Shown piece after piece: positions 3,930-58,506 of a stretch of 64,000 nt of DNA. Source of the stretch: Escherichia coli (GTDB lineage: Bacteria; Pseudomonadota; Gammaproteobacteria; Enterobacterales; Enterobacteriaceae). The DNA lies in NCBI RefSeq assembly GCF_003790525.1, contig NZ_CP033635.1. One strand, written 5' to 3'. A program made the position numbers and the translations under genes. Numbering within the stretch: the first letter of the stretch is position 1; each line of letters opens with the position of its first letter. The notes under the pieces are model-generated. The model was not told the origin of the DNA and searched no databases. It saw only the letters and a list, made by a program, of their open reading frames with translations.

Positions 3930-4850
3930 CTATTGTGAAGGGAGATCGTGTTGTCGGGGTAAGGCGGTTATCGCGCCTTTAGCCGTGGTCGCCAGAGCAC
4001 CACAAATCTGAGCTTGTGCAATGATTCGTTCAAGCTGTCTGGTATTTGTTGGTATTCCAGAATCAGCCAGACCTGCAAGTAATCCAGCGACAAAAGCATC
4101 TCCTGCCCCGGTCGTATCGACGACAGAAACAGGTTTGGCGGGATAGTGGATAAACTGCCCCTGAAAATACACAAGTACGCCATTTTTTCCTTGTGTAATA
4201 AGCAATAAAGTCAACGAATAACGTTGTACTAATGAATATGCGCCTTGCTGAACCTGGCTTTCGCCACTGATGAATAGCAACTCTTCTTCGGACAATTTAG
4301 CGATATTCGCCAGCGAAAGTGCGCGATCAAGGTATTTCCTTAATAGCGCTTCACTCTGCCAGAGATCGCTGCGGATATTGGGATCAAAACTGATGTTTCC
4401 GCCAGCCTGACGTATTTTCTCCATAGCCAGAAATGCGGTACTTCGGGAAGGTTCTGCACTGAGCGCAATGGAACAAAGATGGAGCCATTCACCCGGCCCA
4501 AATGCAGGAAGGTCACCAGGTTGTAAAAAAAGATCGGCACTTGGGCGTACCATAAAGGTAAAGTTTCTTTCTCCTTGCTCATCAAGTCCTACAGCCACAA
4601 TTGAGGTGCGTTGTTGAGGATCAAGAGACATATAATGTGTATCAACATTTTCTGTACTCAGTGTCTGATACATAAAGCGACCGAAAGGATCATCGCCAAC
4701 TTTGCCAATAAAGGCACTTTTCCCCCCCAGCCTTGCGATACCGACTGCAACATTAGCAGGCGCCCCGCCAGGACACTGTAGTAGTCTCCCCTGGCTTTCG
4801 GGTAATAAATCAACAACCGCATCACCGAGTACCCATACTCTTGCGCTCAT
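3930..4850 (-). CDS. scrK: fructokinase (PfkB/ribokinase family)
   Basis: 306 aa ORF with N-terminal GDAVVD and C-terminal DTTGAGDAF motifs. Confidence 0.85.
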   Translation of the reverse strand: MSARVWVLGDAVVDLLPESQGRLLQCPGGAPANVAVGIARLGGKSAFIGKVGDDPFGRFMYQTLSTENVDTHYMSLDPQQRTSIVAVGLDEQGERNFTFMVRPSADLFLQPGDLPAFGPGEWLHLCSIALSAEPSRSTAFLAMEKIRQAGGNISFDPNIRSDLWQSEALLRKYLDRALSLANIAKLSEEELLFISGESQVQQGAYSLVQRYSLTLLLITQGKNGVLVYFQGQFIHYPAKPVSVVDTTGAGDAFVAGLLAGLADSGIPTNTRQLERIIAQAQICGALATTAKGAITALPRQHDLPSQ

Positions 4851-47623: not shown

Positions 47624-50185
47624 TTACACCAGACTCTTCAAGCGATAAATCCACTCCAGCGCCTGACGCGGAGTGAGTGAATCTGGGTCCAGGTTTTCCA
47701 GTGCCTCGACCGCAGGCGAAGTTTCTTCCGGTACGGATAGCAAAGACATTTGTGTACCATCCACTTGCGTAGCAGCGGCGTTCGGCGAAATGCTTTCCAG
47801 CTCACGCAGTTTTTGCCGTGCGCGCTTAATAACCTCTTTTGGCACGCCTGCCAGCGCTGCAACCGCCAGGCCGTAGCTTTTGCTTGCCGCGCCATCCTGC
47901 ACGCTATGCATAAAGGCAATGGTGTCGCCGTGCTCCAGCGCATCGAGATGCACGTTGGCGACGCCTTCCATTTTCTCCGGCAGTTGGGTCAGCTCGAAAT
48001 AGTGGGTAGCAAACAGCGTCAACGCTTTGATCTTATTTGCCAGATTTTCCGCGCATGCCCACGCCAGCGACAGACCATCGTAAGTGGACGTTCCACGCCC
48101 AATCTCGTCCATCAACACCAGACTGTATTCGGTGGCGTTATGTAAAATATTGGCGGTTTCGGTCATCTCCACCATAAAGGTTGAACGTCCGGAAGCCAGA
48201 TCATCCGCGGCACCTACGCGGGTAAAGATGCGATCGATCGGGCCAATCTCGACTTTTTGCGCCGGTACGTAGCTGCCGATATAGGCCATCAGCGCAATCA
48301 ACGCGGTCTGGCGCATATAGGTACTTTTACCGCCCATGTTCGGACCGGTGATGATCAACATGCGGCGCTGCGGCGACAGGTTCAGCGGGTTGGCGATAAA
48401 CGGCTCATTCAGTACCTGTTCAACCACCGGATGGCGGCCTTCGGTAATGCGAATGCCAGGTTTATCAATAAAGGTCGGGCAGGTGTAGTTCAGGGTATAG
48501 GCCCGTTCCGCCAGGTTCACCAGCACGTCGAGTTCCGCCAGCGCGCTCGCGCTCTGTTGCAACGCTTCCAGATGCGGCAACAGCAAGTCGAACAGCTCTT
48601 CATAAAGTTGTTTTTCCAGAGCCAGTGCTTTGCCTTTTGAGGTGAGAACTTTATCTTCGTACTCTTTCAGCTCCGGAATAATGTAACGCTCGGCGTTTTT
48701 CAGCGTCTGGCGGCGCATGTAGTTAATCGGTGCCAGATGGCTTTGCCCACGGCTGATCTGAATGTAGTAGCCGTGCACTGCATTAAAGCCAACTTTCAGC
48801 GTGTCCAGGCCGGTACGTTCACGCTCGCGGACCTCCAGACGCTCCAGATAATCGGTCGCGCCGTCAGCCAGCGCGCGCCACTCATCCAGCTCTTCGTTAT
48901 AGCCCGGTGCGATAACACCACCGTCGCGTACCAGCACTGGCGGTGTGTCGATGATTGCTCGCTCCAGCAGATCGCGCAGCTCGGCAAACTCGCCCATTTT
49001 TTCACGCAGCGCCTGTACCGGAGCGCTATCGACATTTTCTAATAGTGCACGCAGCTCCGGCAGTTGCTGGAAAGCGTGACGCATACGGGCCAGATCGCGT
49101 GGGCGAGCAGTTCGTAAAGCCAGACGTGCCAGAATACGTTCCAGGTCGCCGACCTGACGCAGTACCGGCTGCAGCTCGGCGGTGAAATCCTGCAATGCGC
49201 CAATAGTTTGCTGGCGCTCAAGCAACACGCGGGTATCGCGCACTGGCATATGCAGCCAGCGTTTCAGCATACGGCTGCCCATCGGCGTGACGGTGCAGTC
49301 GAGCACAGAAGCCAGCGTATTTTCCGCACCACCCGCCAGATTCTGGGTGATTTCCAGATTACGACGCGTCGCGGCATCCATAATGATGCTGTCCTGCTCA
49401 CGTTCCATGGTGATAGAACGAATATGCGGCAGGGTCGTGCGTTGGGTATCTTTCGCATACTGCAACAGACAACCGGCAGCACAAAGTCCGCGCGGCGCGT
49501 TCTCGACGCCAAAACCGACCAGATCGCGAGTGCCAAATTGCAGATTCAACTGCTGGCGCGCGGTGTCGATTTCAAACTCCCACAGCGGGCGACGGCGCAG
49601 TCCGCGACGACCTTCAATCAGCGACATCTCGGCGAAATCTTCTGCATACAACAGCTCTGCCGGATTAGTGCGTTGCAGCTCTGCCGCCATCGTTTCGCGG
49701 TCAGCCGGTTCGCTCAGGCGAAAACGCCCGGAACTGATATCCAGCGTCGCGTAGCCGAAACCTTTGCTGTCCTGCCAGATAGCCGCCAGCAGGTTATCCT
49801 GACGCTCCTGCAACAGCGCTTCATCGCTGATGGTGCCCGGCGTAACGATACGCACAACTTTGCGCTCAACCGGACCTTTGCTGGTCGCCGGATCGCCAAT
49901 TTGTTCGCAGATGGCAACGGACTCGCCCTGATTCACCAGTTTGGCGAGGTAGTTTTCCACCGCATGGTAGGGGATCCCCGCCATCGGGATCGGCTCTCCC
50001 GCTGAAGCACCGCGTTTGGTCAGTGAAATATCCAGCAGTTGCGAGGCGCGTTTTGCATCGTCATAAAATAGTTCATAAAAATCACCCATCCGGTAAAACA
50101 GCAGGATCTCGGGATGCTGGGCTTTCAGCTTGAGATATTGCTGCATCATGGGCGTATGGGCATCGAAATTTTCTATTGCACTCAT
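47624..50185 (-). CDS. mutS: DNA mismatch repair protein MutS
   Basis: 853 aa; [22 protein letters not shown]-terminus; Walker [10 protein letters not shown]. Confidence 0.95.
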
Positions 50186-50431
50186 GGGGTTATGTCCGGT
50201 TCCCTGATATTAAATGGGGTGTGATGGTTTTTATTTTCGTTGTAATCACATAAGGCGCACATGATACCGGAGTTAATCATTTCAGGGGAAGAAGCGAACG
50301 GCGAGTTCTTGATGGTGATTCCGGGAAAGATGCTGTTTTGCAGCTTTTGCGTGATGCTTATGAAGCAAGTACGCAAAATTGCGTCGGTTGAATAAACCTC
50401 CTCCTTCAGAGCCATAGTCCCCTTTCAAATT

Positions 50432-50454
50432 AAGTTGTAATATAAATACACCTT
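50432..50454. promoter_or_regulatory. NsrR-like operator candidate upstream of ygbA
   Basis: AAGTTGTAATATAAATACACCTT: 11-1-11 imperfect inverted repeat whose right half resembles the NsrR half-site AAATACATCTT; 18 bp before the ygbA ATG. Confidence 0.35.
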
Positions 50455-50471
50455 AAGAGTATGGAGGCAGC

Positions 50472-50816
50472 ATGTCCGGCAAGCGTATCTCTCGTGAAAA
50501 ACTGACGATTAAAAAAATGATCGATCTTTATCAAGCGAAATGCCCGCAGGCGTCAGCGGAGCCGGAGCATTACGACGCGCTGTTTGCCTACGCGCAAAAG
50601 CGGCTGGATAAATGTGTGTTCGGCGAAGAGAAACCAGCCTGTAAGCAGTGTCCGGTGCACTGTTACCAGCCAGCAAAGCGTGAAGAGATGAAACAGATTA
50701 TGCGTTGGGCCGGGCCGCGAATGCTGTGGCGTCATCCGATCTTAACCGTGCGTCATCTCATCGATGACAAGCGTCCGGTGCCGGAGTTGCCAGAAAAATA
50801 TCGTCCAAAGAAATAA
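50472..50816 (+). CDS. ygbA: conserved protein YgbA
   Basis: 114 aa; cysteine-rich (CPQ...CKQCPVHC). Confidence 0.8.
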   Translation: MSGKRISREKLTIKKMIDLYQAKCPQASAEPEHYDALFAYAQKRLDKCVFGEEKPACKQCPVHCYQPAKREEMKQIMRWAGPRMLWRHPILTVRHLIDDKRPVPELPEKYRPKK

Positions 50817-50820
50817 ATCT

Positions 50821-50843
50821 GCCGGAGAGCCATACTCTCCGGC
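50821..50843 (-). terminator. hairpin between convergent ygbA and the Mop-like gene
   Basis: 9-bp stem GCCGGAGAG / CTCTCCGGC with 5-nt loop; a U-rich tract follows only on the minus-strand transcript. Confidence 0.45.
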
Positions 50844-50854
50844 AAATAAGGCGT

Positions 50855-51283
50855 TTACGCTTTGGTGGCAATCAGGATGGCTGATGCTTTGATCAATGCA
50901 ATAACGCGCGAGCCAGTGGTGAGTTTCATTTCATCCTGACTTTCATTTGTTACCACTGCCACAATTTCAAAACCCGCATCCGTTTTGATATGGACAGTGG
51001 CGTTCACTGCGCCTTCGGTGATTGTCGACACGCTGCCAGCAAACTGGTTGCGAGCAGAGAATTTCAGTCCACAGTCTTCCGTTGCCAGTGTTACCCACGG
51101 GGCTTTAATCAGGGCAATCGCTTCTTTCCCTTTTGCCAGACCAAGAGCCTGCTGGCTGCTGTGTGTAACAATTGCCACCAGCTTTGCACCACCTGCCAGC
51201 GTCAGTTCTACTTCATCATTCACAGCGCCCATTGCTACTGCGCTAACTGTTCCGGTTAATTGATTTCTTGCTGAAACTGCCAT
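50855..51283 (-). CDS. tandem Mop/TOBE-domain molybdate-binding protein
   Basis: Start taken at MAVSARNQLTG with AAAGGAGG just upstream; two about 70-aa repeats each with an SARN-type opening and ALIKA motif; 45 bp downstream of fhlA on the same strand. Confidence 0.65.
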   Translation of the reverse strand: MAVSARNQLTGTVSAVAMGAVNDEVELTLAGGAKLVAIVTHSSQQALGLAKGKEAIALIKAPWVTLATEDCGLKFSARNQFAGSVSTITEGAVNATVHIKTDAGFEIVAVVTNESQDEMKLTTGSRVIALIKASAILIATKA

Positions 51284-51327
51284 ACTGCCTCCTTTCATTG
51301 AATGTTGATCGAGTATAACCACATCTG

Positions 51328-53406
51328 TTAAATCAATGCCGATTTATCAATTCCCAGTCGCTTCATCCGTGACAGCAGAGTCGTGCGTTTCAGCCCCAGA
51401 CGTTGCGCAGCGCCTTTAGGCCCGGCAACCACGCCGTTTGTTTCTTTCAGCACGCGAACAATCAACTGATATTCATCTTCGCCCTCCTGGGCGACAACCG
51501 TTGCGGCAGGCGGCGTTTCAGGTTCTGGTAAAGCAATATCTGGCAATGACAGCTGCAGCACGTTGCCGCGTGTTAGCAATACCGCGCGCTCGATGACGTT
51601 TTCCAGCTCACGCACGTTGCCCGGCCATTCCATGTTGCTCAGGATGCGCAGCGTCTCGGCAGGAATGCTGTCGATATTGCGCCCCAGACGACGGGCAATT
51701 TTGAAGGTAAAGGCTTTCGCCAGCAGCGGAATATCTTCCGGACGCTCGCGTAGTGGCGGCAGGTGGATCGGGAATACGTTCAGGCGGTAATAGAGATCAC
51801 TACGGAACTCTCGGTCGGCGACCATTTTTTTCAGATCGCGGTTAGTCGCGGCAATTAAACGTACGTCCGTCTGAATGATTTTGTTGCTGCCGAGGCGTTC
51901 AAACTCCTGTTCCTGTAATACACGCAGCAACTTCGGCTGTAACTCCAGCGGCATATCGCCCACTTCGTCGAGGAACAGGGAGCTTTTATCCGCCAGTTCA
52001 AAACGACCAATGCGCTGGGCGCTGGCACCGGTAAAAGCCCCACGCTCATGACCAAACAGATCGCTCTCCAGCAATCCGGCAGGCATCGCCGCGCAGTTCA
52101 TTTTTACCATGCGGCGATTATTACGCCCACTGAGATTATGGATAGCACGGGCAATCAGCTCTTTACCCGTGCCAGTTTCACCGAGGATCAGCACGGTACT
52201 GTCACTTTGCGCCACCATTTCAACTTGTTTAAGCACGCTGTACATGGCTTCGCTGCGGCCAATAATCTCGCCAAATTCACTATCAACATTGTTGAGCTGC
52301 TCGGTCAGGGCGAGGTTTTCATCAACCAGCCGTTCTTTCAGACGATGGATTTCCTGATAGGCGAGGGCGTTATCGACAGCGATTGCCACACGTTCGGCAA
52401 TCTGGCGCAGTAAATTCAGATTGGTAGTGGTAAACACTTTCTCTTCGCATTGCGCCAGTTTCAGCACGCCCAGCATGGTGTCGCCAGACATCAGCGGTAA
52501 CAGGCACAAGGTTTGAATCTGGTTGCCCCAGGTGTCGAACAACATGCGTTCATAGGGGGCTAAATCGTCCCGCTCGTGGAGATTAATCAACAGCATCTCT
52601 TTACTTTTGAAGACGCGTTCGGTGAGGGTTCCGGCTTCATCGACTTCGCTCTGTTCGTGGGCGGGATGCTGTTTATCAAGATAGTGAGTGGAGTAGATGT
52701 TGAGTTTGTTTTTACGGTGGCTGCGTAAGACGATGCTGATATCGTCAATGTCGAAGTAGTAATGGATTTCTTTGGCGACTTCGCTGACCAGTTCGTCCAT
52801 ATCCAGGCGGGAAAGCACCGCGTTGGTAATGGCAACCAGGATGCGGAAGTTATCGCGCTCCCGGCATAACAACTCATAGTCGACATTGTTAACGACGCGG
52901 CTCTGGATTTGTTCGGTGACGACCGAAACGATCTGCGTAAATGTTTGCAGACGATTGAACTCTTTTTCGCTCCAGGGGCGATCGTCATAACGAATAAATT
53001 CACAGCCACCAAAAATATGCCCTTCCGCCGCCAGTGGCATCAGGCAATAGTGACCAAATTTGGGGTATAGTCCACCTGCGGCCAGCTGCGGCCAGGTTTC
53101 ACAAAATTCTTCGTAACTGCAATGCAGCGTATCAGGGCGCGACAAAATGCTGCGTACCGGACCGTGTGCCAGAACAGTTTCGTCTTCATATTTAATGGGG
53201 GTGTCTTTTTCACGCGACGCGTAATAAGACGCACGTTGAGTCTGCGCTTGCCACAACACAATAGCCGCGTTGTCGGCGAGCGCAGAACGCTTTACCAGTT
53301 GCGAAAGAGCCTCACACAGCGAGGCCAGATCGGGCTGCTGCAATAGTGTCCGAGTGATGTCGAACAACCCTTGTTGTCCGAGATCACTCATCGGTGTATA
53401 TGACAT
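51328..53406 (-). CDS. fhlA: formate hydrogenlyase transcriptional activator (sigma-54 enhancer-binding protein)
   Basis: Start taken at MSYTPMSDLGQQ (692 aa); AAA+ sigma-54 activator motifs GETGTGKE and GAFTGA; C-terminal HTH. Confidence 0.9.
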   Translation of the reverse strand: MSYTPMSDLGQQGLFDITRTLLQQPDLASLCEALSQLVKRSALADNAAIVLWQAQTQRASYYASREKDTPIKYEDETVLAHGPVRSILSRPDTLHCSYEEFCETWPQLAAGGLYPKFGHYCLMPLAAEGHIFGGCEFIRYDDRPWSEKEFNRLQTFTQIVSVVTEQIQSRVVNNVDYELLCRERDNFRILVAITNAVLSRLDMDELVSEVAKEIHYYFDIDDISIVLRSHRKNKLNIYSTHYLDKQHPAHEQSEVDEAGTLTERVFKSKEMLLINLHERDDLAPYERMLFDTWGNQIQTLCLLPLMSGDTMLGVLKLAQCEEKVFTTTNLNLLRQIAERVAIAVDNALAYQEIHRLKERLVDENLALTEQLNNVDSEFGEIIGRSEAMYSVLKQVEMVAQSDSTVLILGETGTGKELIARAIHNLSGRNNRRMVKMNCAAMPAGLLESDLFGHERGAFTGASAQRIGRFELADKSSLFLDEVGDMPLELQPKLLRVLQEQEFERLGSNKIIQTDVRLIAATNRDLKKMVADREFRSDLYYRLNVFPIHLPPLRERPEDIPLLAKAFTFKIARRLGRNIDSIPAETLRILSNMEWPGNVRELENVIERAVLLTRGNVLQLSLPDIALPEPETPPAATVVAQEGEDEYQLIVRVLKETNGVVAGPKGAAQRLGLKRTTLLSRMKRLGIDKSALI

Positions 53407-53479
53407 TTTGTTCTTCCAGGAAAGCACCGCAAAGCGGTGCAAAAGGTCATTGACTAACTATAGGAGATTTAGAATTTTA

Positions 53480-57820: not shown

Positions 57821-57846
57821 TGTCGATGAGTGTCGAAAATGACATT
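57821..57846. promoter_or_regulatory. second FhlA-UAS-like motif in the hycA-hycB intergenic region
   Basis: TGTCGATGAGTGTCGAAAATGACATT, near-identical in pattern to 57170-57191. Confidence 0.4.
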
Positions 57847-57894
57847 TCATCGGCATGTTTTCGTCAAAAATGACAATCACCTGAGGAATGCCTG

Positions 57895-58506
57895 GTGAAT
57901 CGTTTTGTAATTGCTGACTCCACGCTCTGTATCGGCTGCCACACTTGTGAGGCTGCCTGTTCAGAGACGCATCGCCAGCACGGCCTGCAATCAATGCCGC
58001 GCCTGCGAGTGATGCTCAATGAAAAAGAATCTGCGCCGCAGCTCTGTCACCACTGTGAAGATGCGCCCTGTGCGGTGGTTTGCCCGGTTAACGCCATCAC
58101 CCGCGTTGATGGGGCCGTGCAGTTGAATGAAAGTCTGTGCGTAAGCTGCAAACTGTGCGGCATCGCCTGCCCGTTTGGCGCAATTGAATTTTCCGGCAGC
58201 CGTCCGCTGGATATTCCGGCAAACGCCAATACCCCGAAAGCGCCACCGGCACCGCCTGCTCCGGCGCGTGTCAGCACATTGCTTGACTGGGTGCCAGGTA
58301 TTCGCGCGATCGCCGTCAAATGTGACCTTTGTAGTTTTGATGAACAAGGTCCGGCCTGCGTGCGGATGTGCCCGACTAAAGCCCTGCATCTGGTGGATAA
58401 CACCGATATCGCCCGCGTCAGCAAACGTAAGCGTGAGCTGACTTTTAACACGGACTTTGGCGATCTCACCTTGTTTCAGCAGGCTCAAAGTGGAGAGGCT
58501 AAATGA
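57895..58506 (+). CDS. hycB: formate hydrogenlyase subunit 2 (4Fe-4S ferredoxin-type)
   Basis: 203 aa, GTG start; multiple CxxCxxCxxxCP motifs. Confidence 0.9.
   Translation: MNRFVIADSTLCIGCHTCEAACSETHRQHGLQSMPRLRVMLNEKESAPQLCHHCEDAPCAVVCPVNAITRVDGAVQLNESLCVSCKLCGIACPFGAIEFSGSRPLDIPANANTPKAPPAPPAPARVSTLLDWVPGIRAIAVKCDLCSFDEQGPACVRMCPTKALHLVDNTDIARVSKRKRELTFNTDFGDLTLFQQAQSGEAK

Follow-up and report, generated by a model that had tools for sequence, protein, structure and literature searches.

The 23-bp element at positions 50432-50454 of the window (the whole stretch of 64,000 nucleotides of Escherichia coli DNA analysed in this work) is most probably the operator by which NsrR controls ygbA. 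NsrR bound at this element would occlude the ygbA promoter, and the occlusion would be relieved by nitric oxide (NO); the probability of this reading is estimated at about 0.9.

Sequence of the element and its match to the NsrR motif

The initial annotation had described an 11-1-11 imperfect inverted repeat at 50432-50454, and the sequence was found to be exactly as given there: AAGTTGTAATA occupies 50432-50442, a single T lies at 50443 and AAATACACCTT occupies 50444-50454. The start of ygbA is at 50472, so that 17 nt separate the end of the operator from the start codon. The operator and its two halves are listed below.

50432..50454, no strand: NsrR operator, the 11-1-11 imperfect inverted repeat AAGTTGTAATA-T-AAATACACCTT (sequence, top matrix match, published site and conservation)
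50444..50454, minus strand: strong NsrR half-site, reading AAGGTGTATTT on that strand, consensus AAGATGCATTT (13.3 bits, half-site matrix)
50432..50442, plus strand: weak NsrR half-site AAGTTGTAATA, which has bases in common with the predicted -10 hexamer (7.0 bits, half-site matrix)

The two arms are complementary at 8 of 11 positions. The 64-kb window contains 84 repeats of the 11-1-11 form with at least 8/11 complementarity, compared to about 76 expected from a binomial estimate. The bare inverted repeat is not above chance, whereas the match to the NsrR motif is far above chance; the significance of the element lies in what its arms spell and not in the 8/11 repeat itself.

The motif match was scored with a symmetric 23-bp NsrR matrix derived from the 11-1-11 sites in Table 4 of Mehta et al. 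2015 (PMC5320621), which come from strain CFT073. The ygbA and hycB entries were left out of the training set because both loci lie in the window, and one duplicate was also omitted. The matrix scan, which had been proposed as a check of the initial annotation, was strongly positive. The operator was the top match in the window, ranking first of about 64,000 positions, with a score of 21.5 bits when the window served as background and 20.5 bits when the background was uniform. The exact score distribution gave P = 3.3e-8 per position, equivalent to 0.002 expected matches per window and 0.16 per 4.9-Mb genome, and none of 200 shuffled windows reached the score of the operator (best 19.5). The score of the operator also falls within the range of the listed sites (12-32 bits), among which hmp scores 21.4, ytfE 32.0 and hcp 26.9. 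When the halves were scored separately with an 11-bp half-site matrix, the right half obtained 13.3 bits, compared to 7.0 bits for the left half (the training halves had a median of 9.95 and a maximum of 15.5), in agreement with the earlier claim that the right half closely matches the NsrR half-site.

Published evidence for NsrR control of ygbA

The assignment of ygbA to the NsrR regulon, also made in the initial annotation, is borne out by the literature. According to the citations in PMC5320621, ygbA is known as an NsrR-regulated gene (Bodenmiller and Spiro, 2006) and the K-12 ygbA promoter was bound by NsrR in a ChIP-chip experiment (Partridge et al., 2009). In Salmonella Typhimurium, the ygbA mRNA level was 31.8-fold up in an nsrR mutant (PMC2884951). 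Rodionov et al. 2005 (PMC1274295) mention a communication in which hmp, ytfE and ygbA are described as repressed by YjeB/NsrR by way of an inverted repeat that they have in common, and E. coli NsrR is described in PMC5320621 as an [Fe-S] NO-sensitive repressor. The CFT073 ChIP-seq data showed no NsrR peak at ygbA, which the authors considered a probable false negative (PMC5320621). The text of the same paper counts ygbA among the most highly nitrate-induced genes (Table 1), yet the gene is absent from the printed top-50 table. Of 5426 complete E. coli genomes, 5425 carry nsrR.

The ygbA sites published for E. coli K-12 and CFT073 lie at the same locus and in the same position relative to ygbA as the site in the window. 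Table 4 of PMC5320621 gives the CFT073 site as AAGGTGCATTTATATTACAACTT; its reverse complement, AAGTTGTAATATAAATGCACCTT, is identical to the window site at 22 of 23 positions, the sole difference being at 50448, where CFT073 has G and the window has A. K-12 MG1655 carries AAGATGTAATATAAATACATCTT at the same place, which is identical at 21 of 23 positions, with A4/T20 where the window has T4/C20. Identification of 50432-50454 with the already known NsrR operator of ygbA is supported by these comparisons, and the designation 'candidate' understates the case.

Conservation of the operator across Enterobacterales

A single YgbA protein scan of species-representative genomes yielded 80 loci in other genomes, covering Escherichia, Citrobacter, Salmonella, Enterobacter, Klebsiella, Raoultella, Kluyvera, Lelliottia, Leclercia, Pluralibacter, Rahnella, Hafnia and others. 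Within the 300 nt upstream of ygbA, the best matrix match reached at least 11 bits in 79 of the 80 loci (median 20.3), while the best match elsewhere in the same loci of about 3 kb had a median of only 5.5 bits. In 79 of the 80 loci the best match ended 12-22 nt before the ATG, most often 18 nt; in Hafnia the distance was 41 nt.

Because the sites in these loci had themselves been selected with the NsrR matrix, a matrix-independent MAFFT alignment was added, comprising 130 nt of upstream sequence and 30 nt of coding sequence from 81 Enterobacterales sequences. The result showed that 50432-50454 is the sole conserved block in the 130 nt upstream, with many columns 95-100% identical and flanks that are essentially random. 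Beyond the block, upstream conservation was confined to a G at 50417 (91%) and the ribosome-binding site. The conserved footprint coincides to the base with the 23-mer at 50432-50454.

The logo of the orthologous sites showed that the canonical NsrR bases are retained in the right half, namely A15, T16, R17, C18, A19, C21, T22 and T23, with ATGCA and the terminal TT nearly invariant, and that the outer AA at site positions 1-2 mirrors the TT at 22-23. The deviations of the left half from AAGATGCATTT-N follow a constant pattern: position 7 is always T, position 8 is always A and the centre, position 12, is always T, and position 11 is A in 66 of the 67 distinct orthologous sites.

Two of the loci stood apart. 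The sole degraded operator among the 80, AAGAGGTAACATTCAAGCCTCTT (4.2 bits), was found in L073, a metagenome-assembled genome (Enterobacteriaceae bacterium UBA5654); it still has the dyad ends AAGAGG...CCTCTT as well as TAnnAT, and may represent either diverged specificity or a decaying site. The other, L077 (CACSKA010000005.1), is titled 'Chryseobacterium sp. 18061' but has an Enterobacteriaceae-type ygbA locus with 83% protein identity, together with a typical NsrR operator. In its upstream sequence, this contig closely resembles L047 (CACSJR010000014.1), 'Citrobacter sp. 18056', from the same project, and the L077 assembly is probably mislabelled or contaminated.

A predicted promoter embedded in the operator

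A strict sigma-70 consensus scan of 50100-50900 returned no promoter because the -35 element is weak, and the ygbA promoter was instead deduced from cross-species conservation. On this basis we infer the following elements.

50415..50420, plus strand: weak -35-like hexamer TAGTCC, with a 17-bp spacer to the -10 hexamer (from conservation)
50438..50443, plus strand: predicted sigma-70 -10 hexamer TAATAT, inside the operator (from conservation)
50450 (A), plus strand: predicted start of transcription, some 7 nt past the -10 hexamer, plus or minus 1-2 nt
50463..50467, plus strand: Shine-Dalgarno sequence GGAGG, 4 nt before the ATG; G50463 is 81% conserved
50472..50816, plus strand: ygbA coding sequence, the regulated gene (114 aa plus stop; open reading frame, with the annotation ygbA in record NZ_CP042896.1, which is 100% identical)

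The sigma-70 -10 hexamer has a critical A at -11 and a critical T at -7. At site positions 7-12, 79 of the 80 loci have TAnnAT, in the form TATTAT in 53 of them; the window has TAATAT. In the MAFFT footprint T50438, A50439 and T50443 show no variation, and the conservation of A50442 is 99%. The third position of the -35 hexamer (50417) is G in 91% of the aligned sequences, and in 73 of the 80 loci it lies at the 17-bp spacing. The -35 region of other genera reads CTGAAA or TTG.., and TAGTCC in the window matches TTGACA at 3 of 6 positions. The predicted ygbA leader would be about 22 nt long. The overlap with the likely ygbA promoter put forward in the initial annotation thus takes the form of a predicted, conserved TAnnAT -10 hexamer inside the 23-mer.

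Two other promoter arrangements were considered and rejected. The alternative -10 hexamer TATAAA (50441-50446) has A as its last position in 61 of the 67 distinct orthologous sites, where a -10 element needs T, and would leave a 20-bp spacer to the conserved -35 G. An extended -10 element is not present in the window, as the TG at 50436-50437 abuts the hexamer and is not placed one base upstream of it.

Conservation in the loci leads us to infer that operator and -10 hexamer share one piece of DNA in practically all Enterobacterales covered here. That the left half-site matches NsrR less well than the right would be due to its double duty as -10 element. Fusion of operator and -10 hexamer across the family would make ygbA a clear natural case of one operator under constraint from two readers.

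Proposed mechanism of regulation

In the mechanism proposed, a dimer of holo-NsrR, an [Fe-S] protein of the Rrf2 family, would bind both 11-bp half-sites. The operator would then cover about -18 to +5 of the ygbA promoter, including the predicted -10 hexamer (TAATAT, 50438-50443), and bound NsrR would presumably keep RNA polymerase off the promoter by occlusion. NO would nitrosylate the cluster, upon which NsrR would leave the DNA and ygbA would be transcribed. The biochemical background is given in PMC4861436, PMC11500311 and PMC5411485, according to which holo [4Fe-4S] NsrR is a tight DNA binder that loses its binding on reaction with NO.

The gene regulated in this way is conserved; through the operator, ygbA would be linked to the nitrosative-stress (NsrR) regulon in the strain from which the window derives. 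The overlap of operator and -10 hexamer, together with the three alleles described below, is a small addition that could aid the design of NO-responsive reporters from the ygbA promoter. These additions leave the current understanding unchanged, the tie between NsrR and ygbA being already established for K-12 and Salmonella.

Alternative explanations of the conserved element

It is very improbable that the conserved block is the core promoter of ygbA only, that is, the -10 hexamer and start region, with a fortuitous dyad and no repressor. Such an explanation would account for the invariance of TAnnAT inside the block, for an 8/11 inverted repeat that occurs at chance frequency (84 in the window) and for the CFT073 ChIP-seq data, which lack an NsrR peak at ygbA (PMC5320621). 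However, AA at site positions 1-2, ATGCA at 15-19 and TT at 22-23 are the most conserved bases outside the hexamer and have no role in sigma-70 recognition. Besides being mirror-symmetric, these bases spell out the NsrR half-site (13.3 bits), and a core promoter would leave the full-site NsrR match (P 3.3e-8 per position) to accident. It would also be at odds with the derepression of ygbA in nsrR mutants (PMC2884951) and with the ChIP-chip binding of the K-12 promoter reported in PMC5320621. An even smaller chance is given to the element being the operator of another regulator whose site resembles that of NsrR, be it a further member of the Rrf2 family (IscR, for example) or one of FNR, NarL/NarP and Fur. 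The response of ygbA to growth with nitrate or nitrite speaks for such a regulator, as these conditions also engage FNR and NarL/NarP, and so does the fact that Rrf2 proteins bind related A/T-rich dyads. Nevertheless, consensus scans of the mutS-ygbA spacer for FNR, NarL/NarP, Fur, IscR and CRP gave weak, chance-level matches and none at 50432-50454. The best spacer matches had 9/25 mismatches for IscR type 1, 7/19 for Fur, 3/14 for NarL 7-2-7 and 3/10 for CRP. The best FNR-like site (50351-50364, 2/10 mismatches; about 0.1 expected per spacer by a binomial estimate) lies about 80 bp from the element, whereas the element itself matches a matrix derived from NsrR ChIP-seq sites.

The position of the inverted repeat near the ribosome-binding site could also suggest that it acts in RNA, as a hairpin, an attenuator or a small-RNA element in the ygbA leader. 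This explanation is scarcely credible, as a 1-nt spacer cannot form a loop and the fold of 50425-50475 is unremarkable (-4.9 kcal/mol, z = +0.29; the fold was equally good or better in 112 of 200 shuffles). With the predicted start located within the repeat, the left arm would not be transcribed, which also counts against a role in RNA. A search of Rfam found no family match in 50100-50900 at E values up to 1.

Alleles of the operator in E. coli

The alleles of the operator were counted by exact 30-mer searches over the operator in 5426 complete E. coli genomes, with the following results.

Window allele: 1299 genomes
K-12 allele: 2111 genomes
CFT073 allele: 1090 genomes

Together, these three common alleles account for 83% of the 5426 genomes. 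They vary only at site positions 4, 17 (A/G) and 20; positions 4 and 20 are of low information in the NsrR matrix as well as in the logo of the orthologues, and only purines occur at position 17. The spacer just upstream of the operator shows many differences between K-12 and the window. Such a pattern would be expected from purifying selection on the contact bases.

The window and CFT073 alleles are both T4/C20, whereas the allele of K-12, the ChIP-chip-positive strain, is the symmetric A4/T20. The matrix scores of the alleles (K-12 22.0, CFT073 21.4, window 20.5) have a spread of only about 1.5 bits, and it is unlikely, though worth stating, that the T4/C20 allele (the window and CFT073 type) binds NsrR measurably more weakly than the K-12 allele. 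If it did, the missing CFT073 ChIP-seq peak would be real and not a false negative, and about 44% of E. coli genomes (1299 + 1090 of 5426) would have a higher basal level of ygbA expression or a lower NO threshold.

Comparison with other NsrR operators

The ytfE, hcp and hmp operators (consensus AAGATGCATTT-N-AAATGCATCTT) have the same 11-1-11 architecture as the ygbA operator and share with it the bases AA..TG.A / T.CA..TT; like the ygbA operator, each is located in the promoter of a nitrosative-stress gene. The score of the ygbA operator (20.5-21.5 bits) is similar to that of hmp (21.4) and lower than those of ytfE (32.0) and hcp (26.9). The ygbA operator differs from all three in being markedly asymmetric, with a left half of 7.0 bits in which T7 and A11 are fixed and with T12 fixed at the centre. 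Relative to the canonical operators, the left half would be degraded because it doubles as the -10 hexamer.

The Streptomyces coelicolor [4Fe-4S] NsrR, with its operators at hmpA, belongs to the same regulator family; its structures and biochemistry are the subject of PMC5411485, PMC9338935 and PMC4861436. The presumed logic is the same as that of the ygbA system, a holo dimer on a dyad operator with binding abolished by NO, but the organism and the operator consensus are different. According to a statement in PMC10783083, the structure of an enterobacterial NsrR-DNA complex has not been solved.

Other NsrR matrix matches in the window

The second-best match to the NsrR matrix, AAGAGACATATAATGTGTATCAA at 4623-4645 (16.2 bits), is located inside an open reading frame of 306 aa (3930-4850, minus strand). 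It was rejected as an NsrR site and is probably due to chance, given this location and the approximately 0.05 such matches expected per window. The third-best match (14.3 bits) is AAATGACATTTCATCGGCATGTT at 57837-57859, in the hycA-hycB spacer, 35 nt before the GTG of hycB at 57895. The NsrR site given for hycB in Table 4 of PMC5320621 has exactly this sequence and was found under a CFT073 ChIP-seq peak with 16-fold enrichment; hycB was strongly down-regulated with nitrate (PMC5320621). As both the ygbA and the hycB sites are published, the window carries two published NsrR sites.

Genomic setting of ygbA

The window comes from Escherichia coli, and its segment 50150-50900 is 100% identical to strain CFSAN061771; this stretch was found in 5419 of 5426 complete E. 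coli genomes. The YgbA protein matches the Pfam family YgbA_NO (PF11756, E 4.2e-41). The surroundings of ygbA are as follows.

47624-50185, minus strand: mutS
Between mutS and ygbA: spacer of 286 bp
50855-51322, minus strand: open reading frame with two TOBE domains (Pfam PF03459, E 1e-34)
51328-53442, minus strand: fhlA

The mutS-ygbA spacer shows little conservation outside Escherichia. It contains, at 50261-50395 on the plus strand, a 44-aa 'hypothetical protein' annotated by PGAP (WP_000611937.1), and at 50351-50364 the FNR-like sequence GTGATGCTTATGAA, which agrees with the consensus at 8 of 10 positions and whose centre precedes the predicted ygbA start by about 92 bp.

A G+C-rich hairpin with a 14-bp stem (50817-50847) follows directly after the ygbA stop codon, between the convergent ygbA and TOBE-domain genes, and is likely to be a bidirectional intrinsic terminator. 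The TOBE-domain open reading frame at 50855-51322, which lies between ygbA and fhlA and is shorter in the PGAP version (142 aa), presumably encodes a Mop-like molybdate-binding fold. Genomes of the K-12 type are without this open reading frame, and their similarity to the window ends at about 50813; K-12 YgbA consequently has 117 aa and a different C-terminal end.
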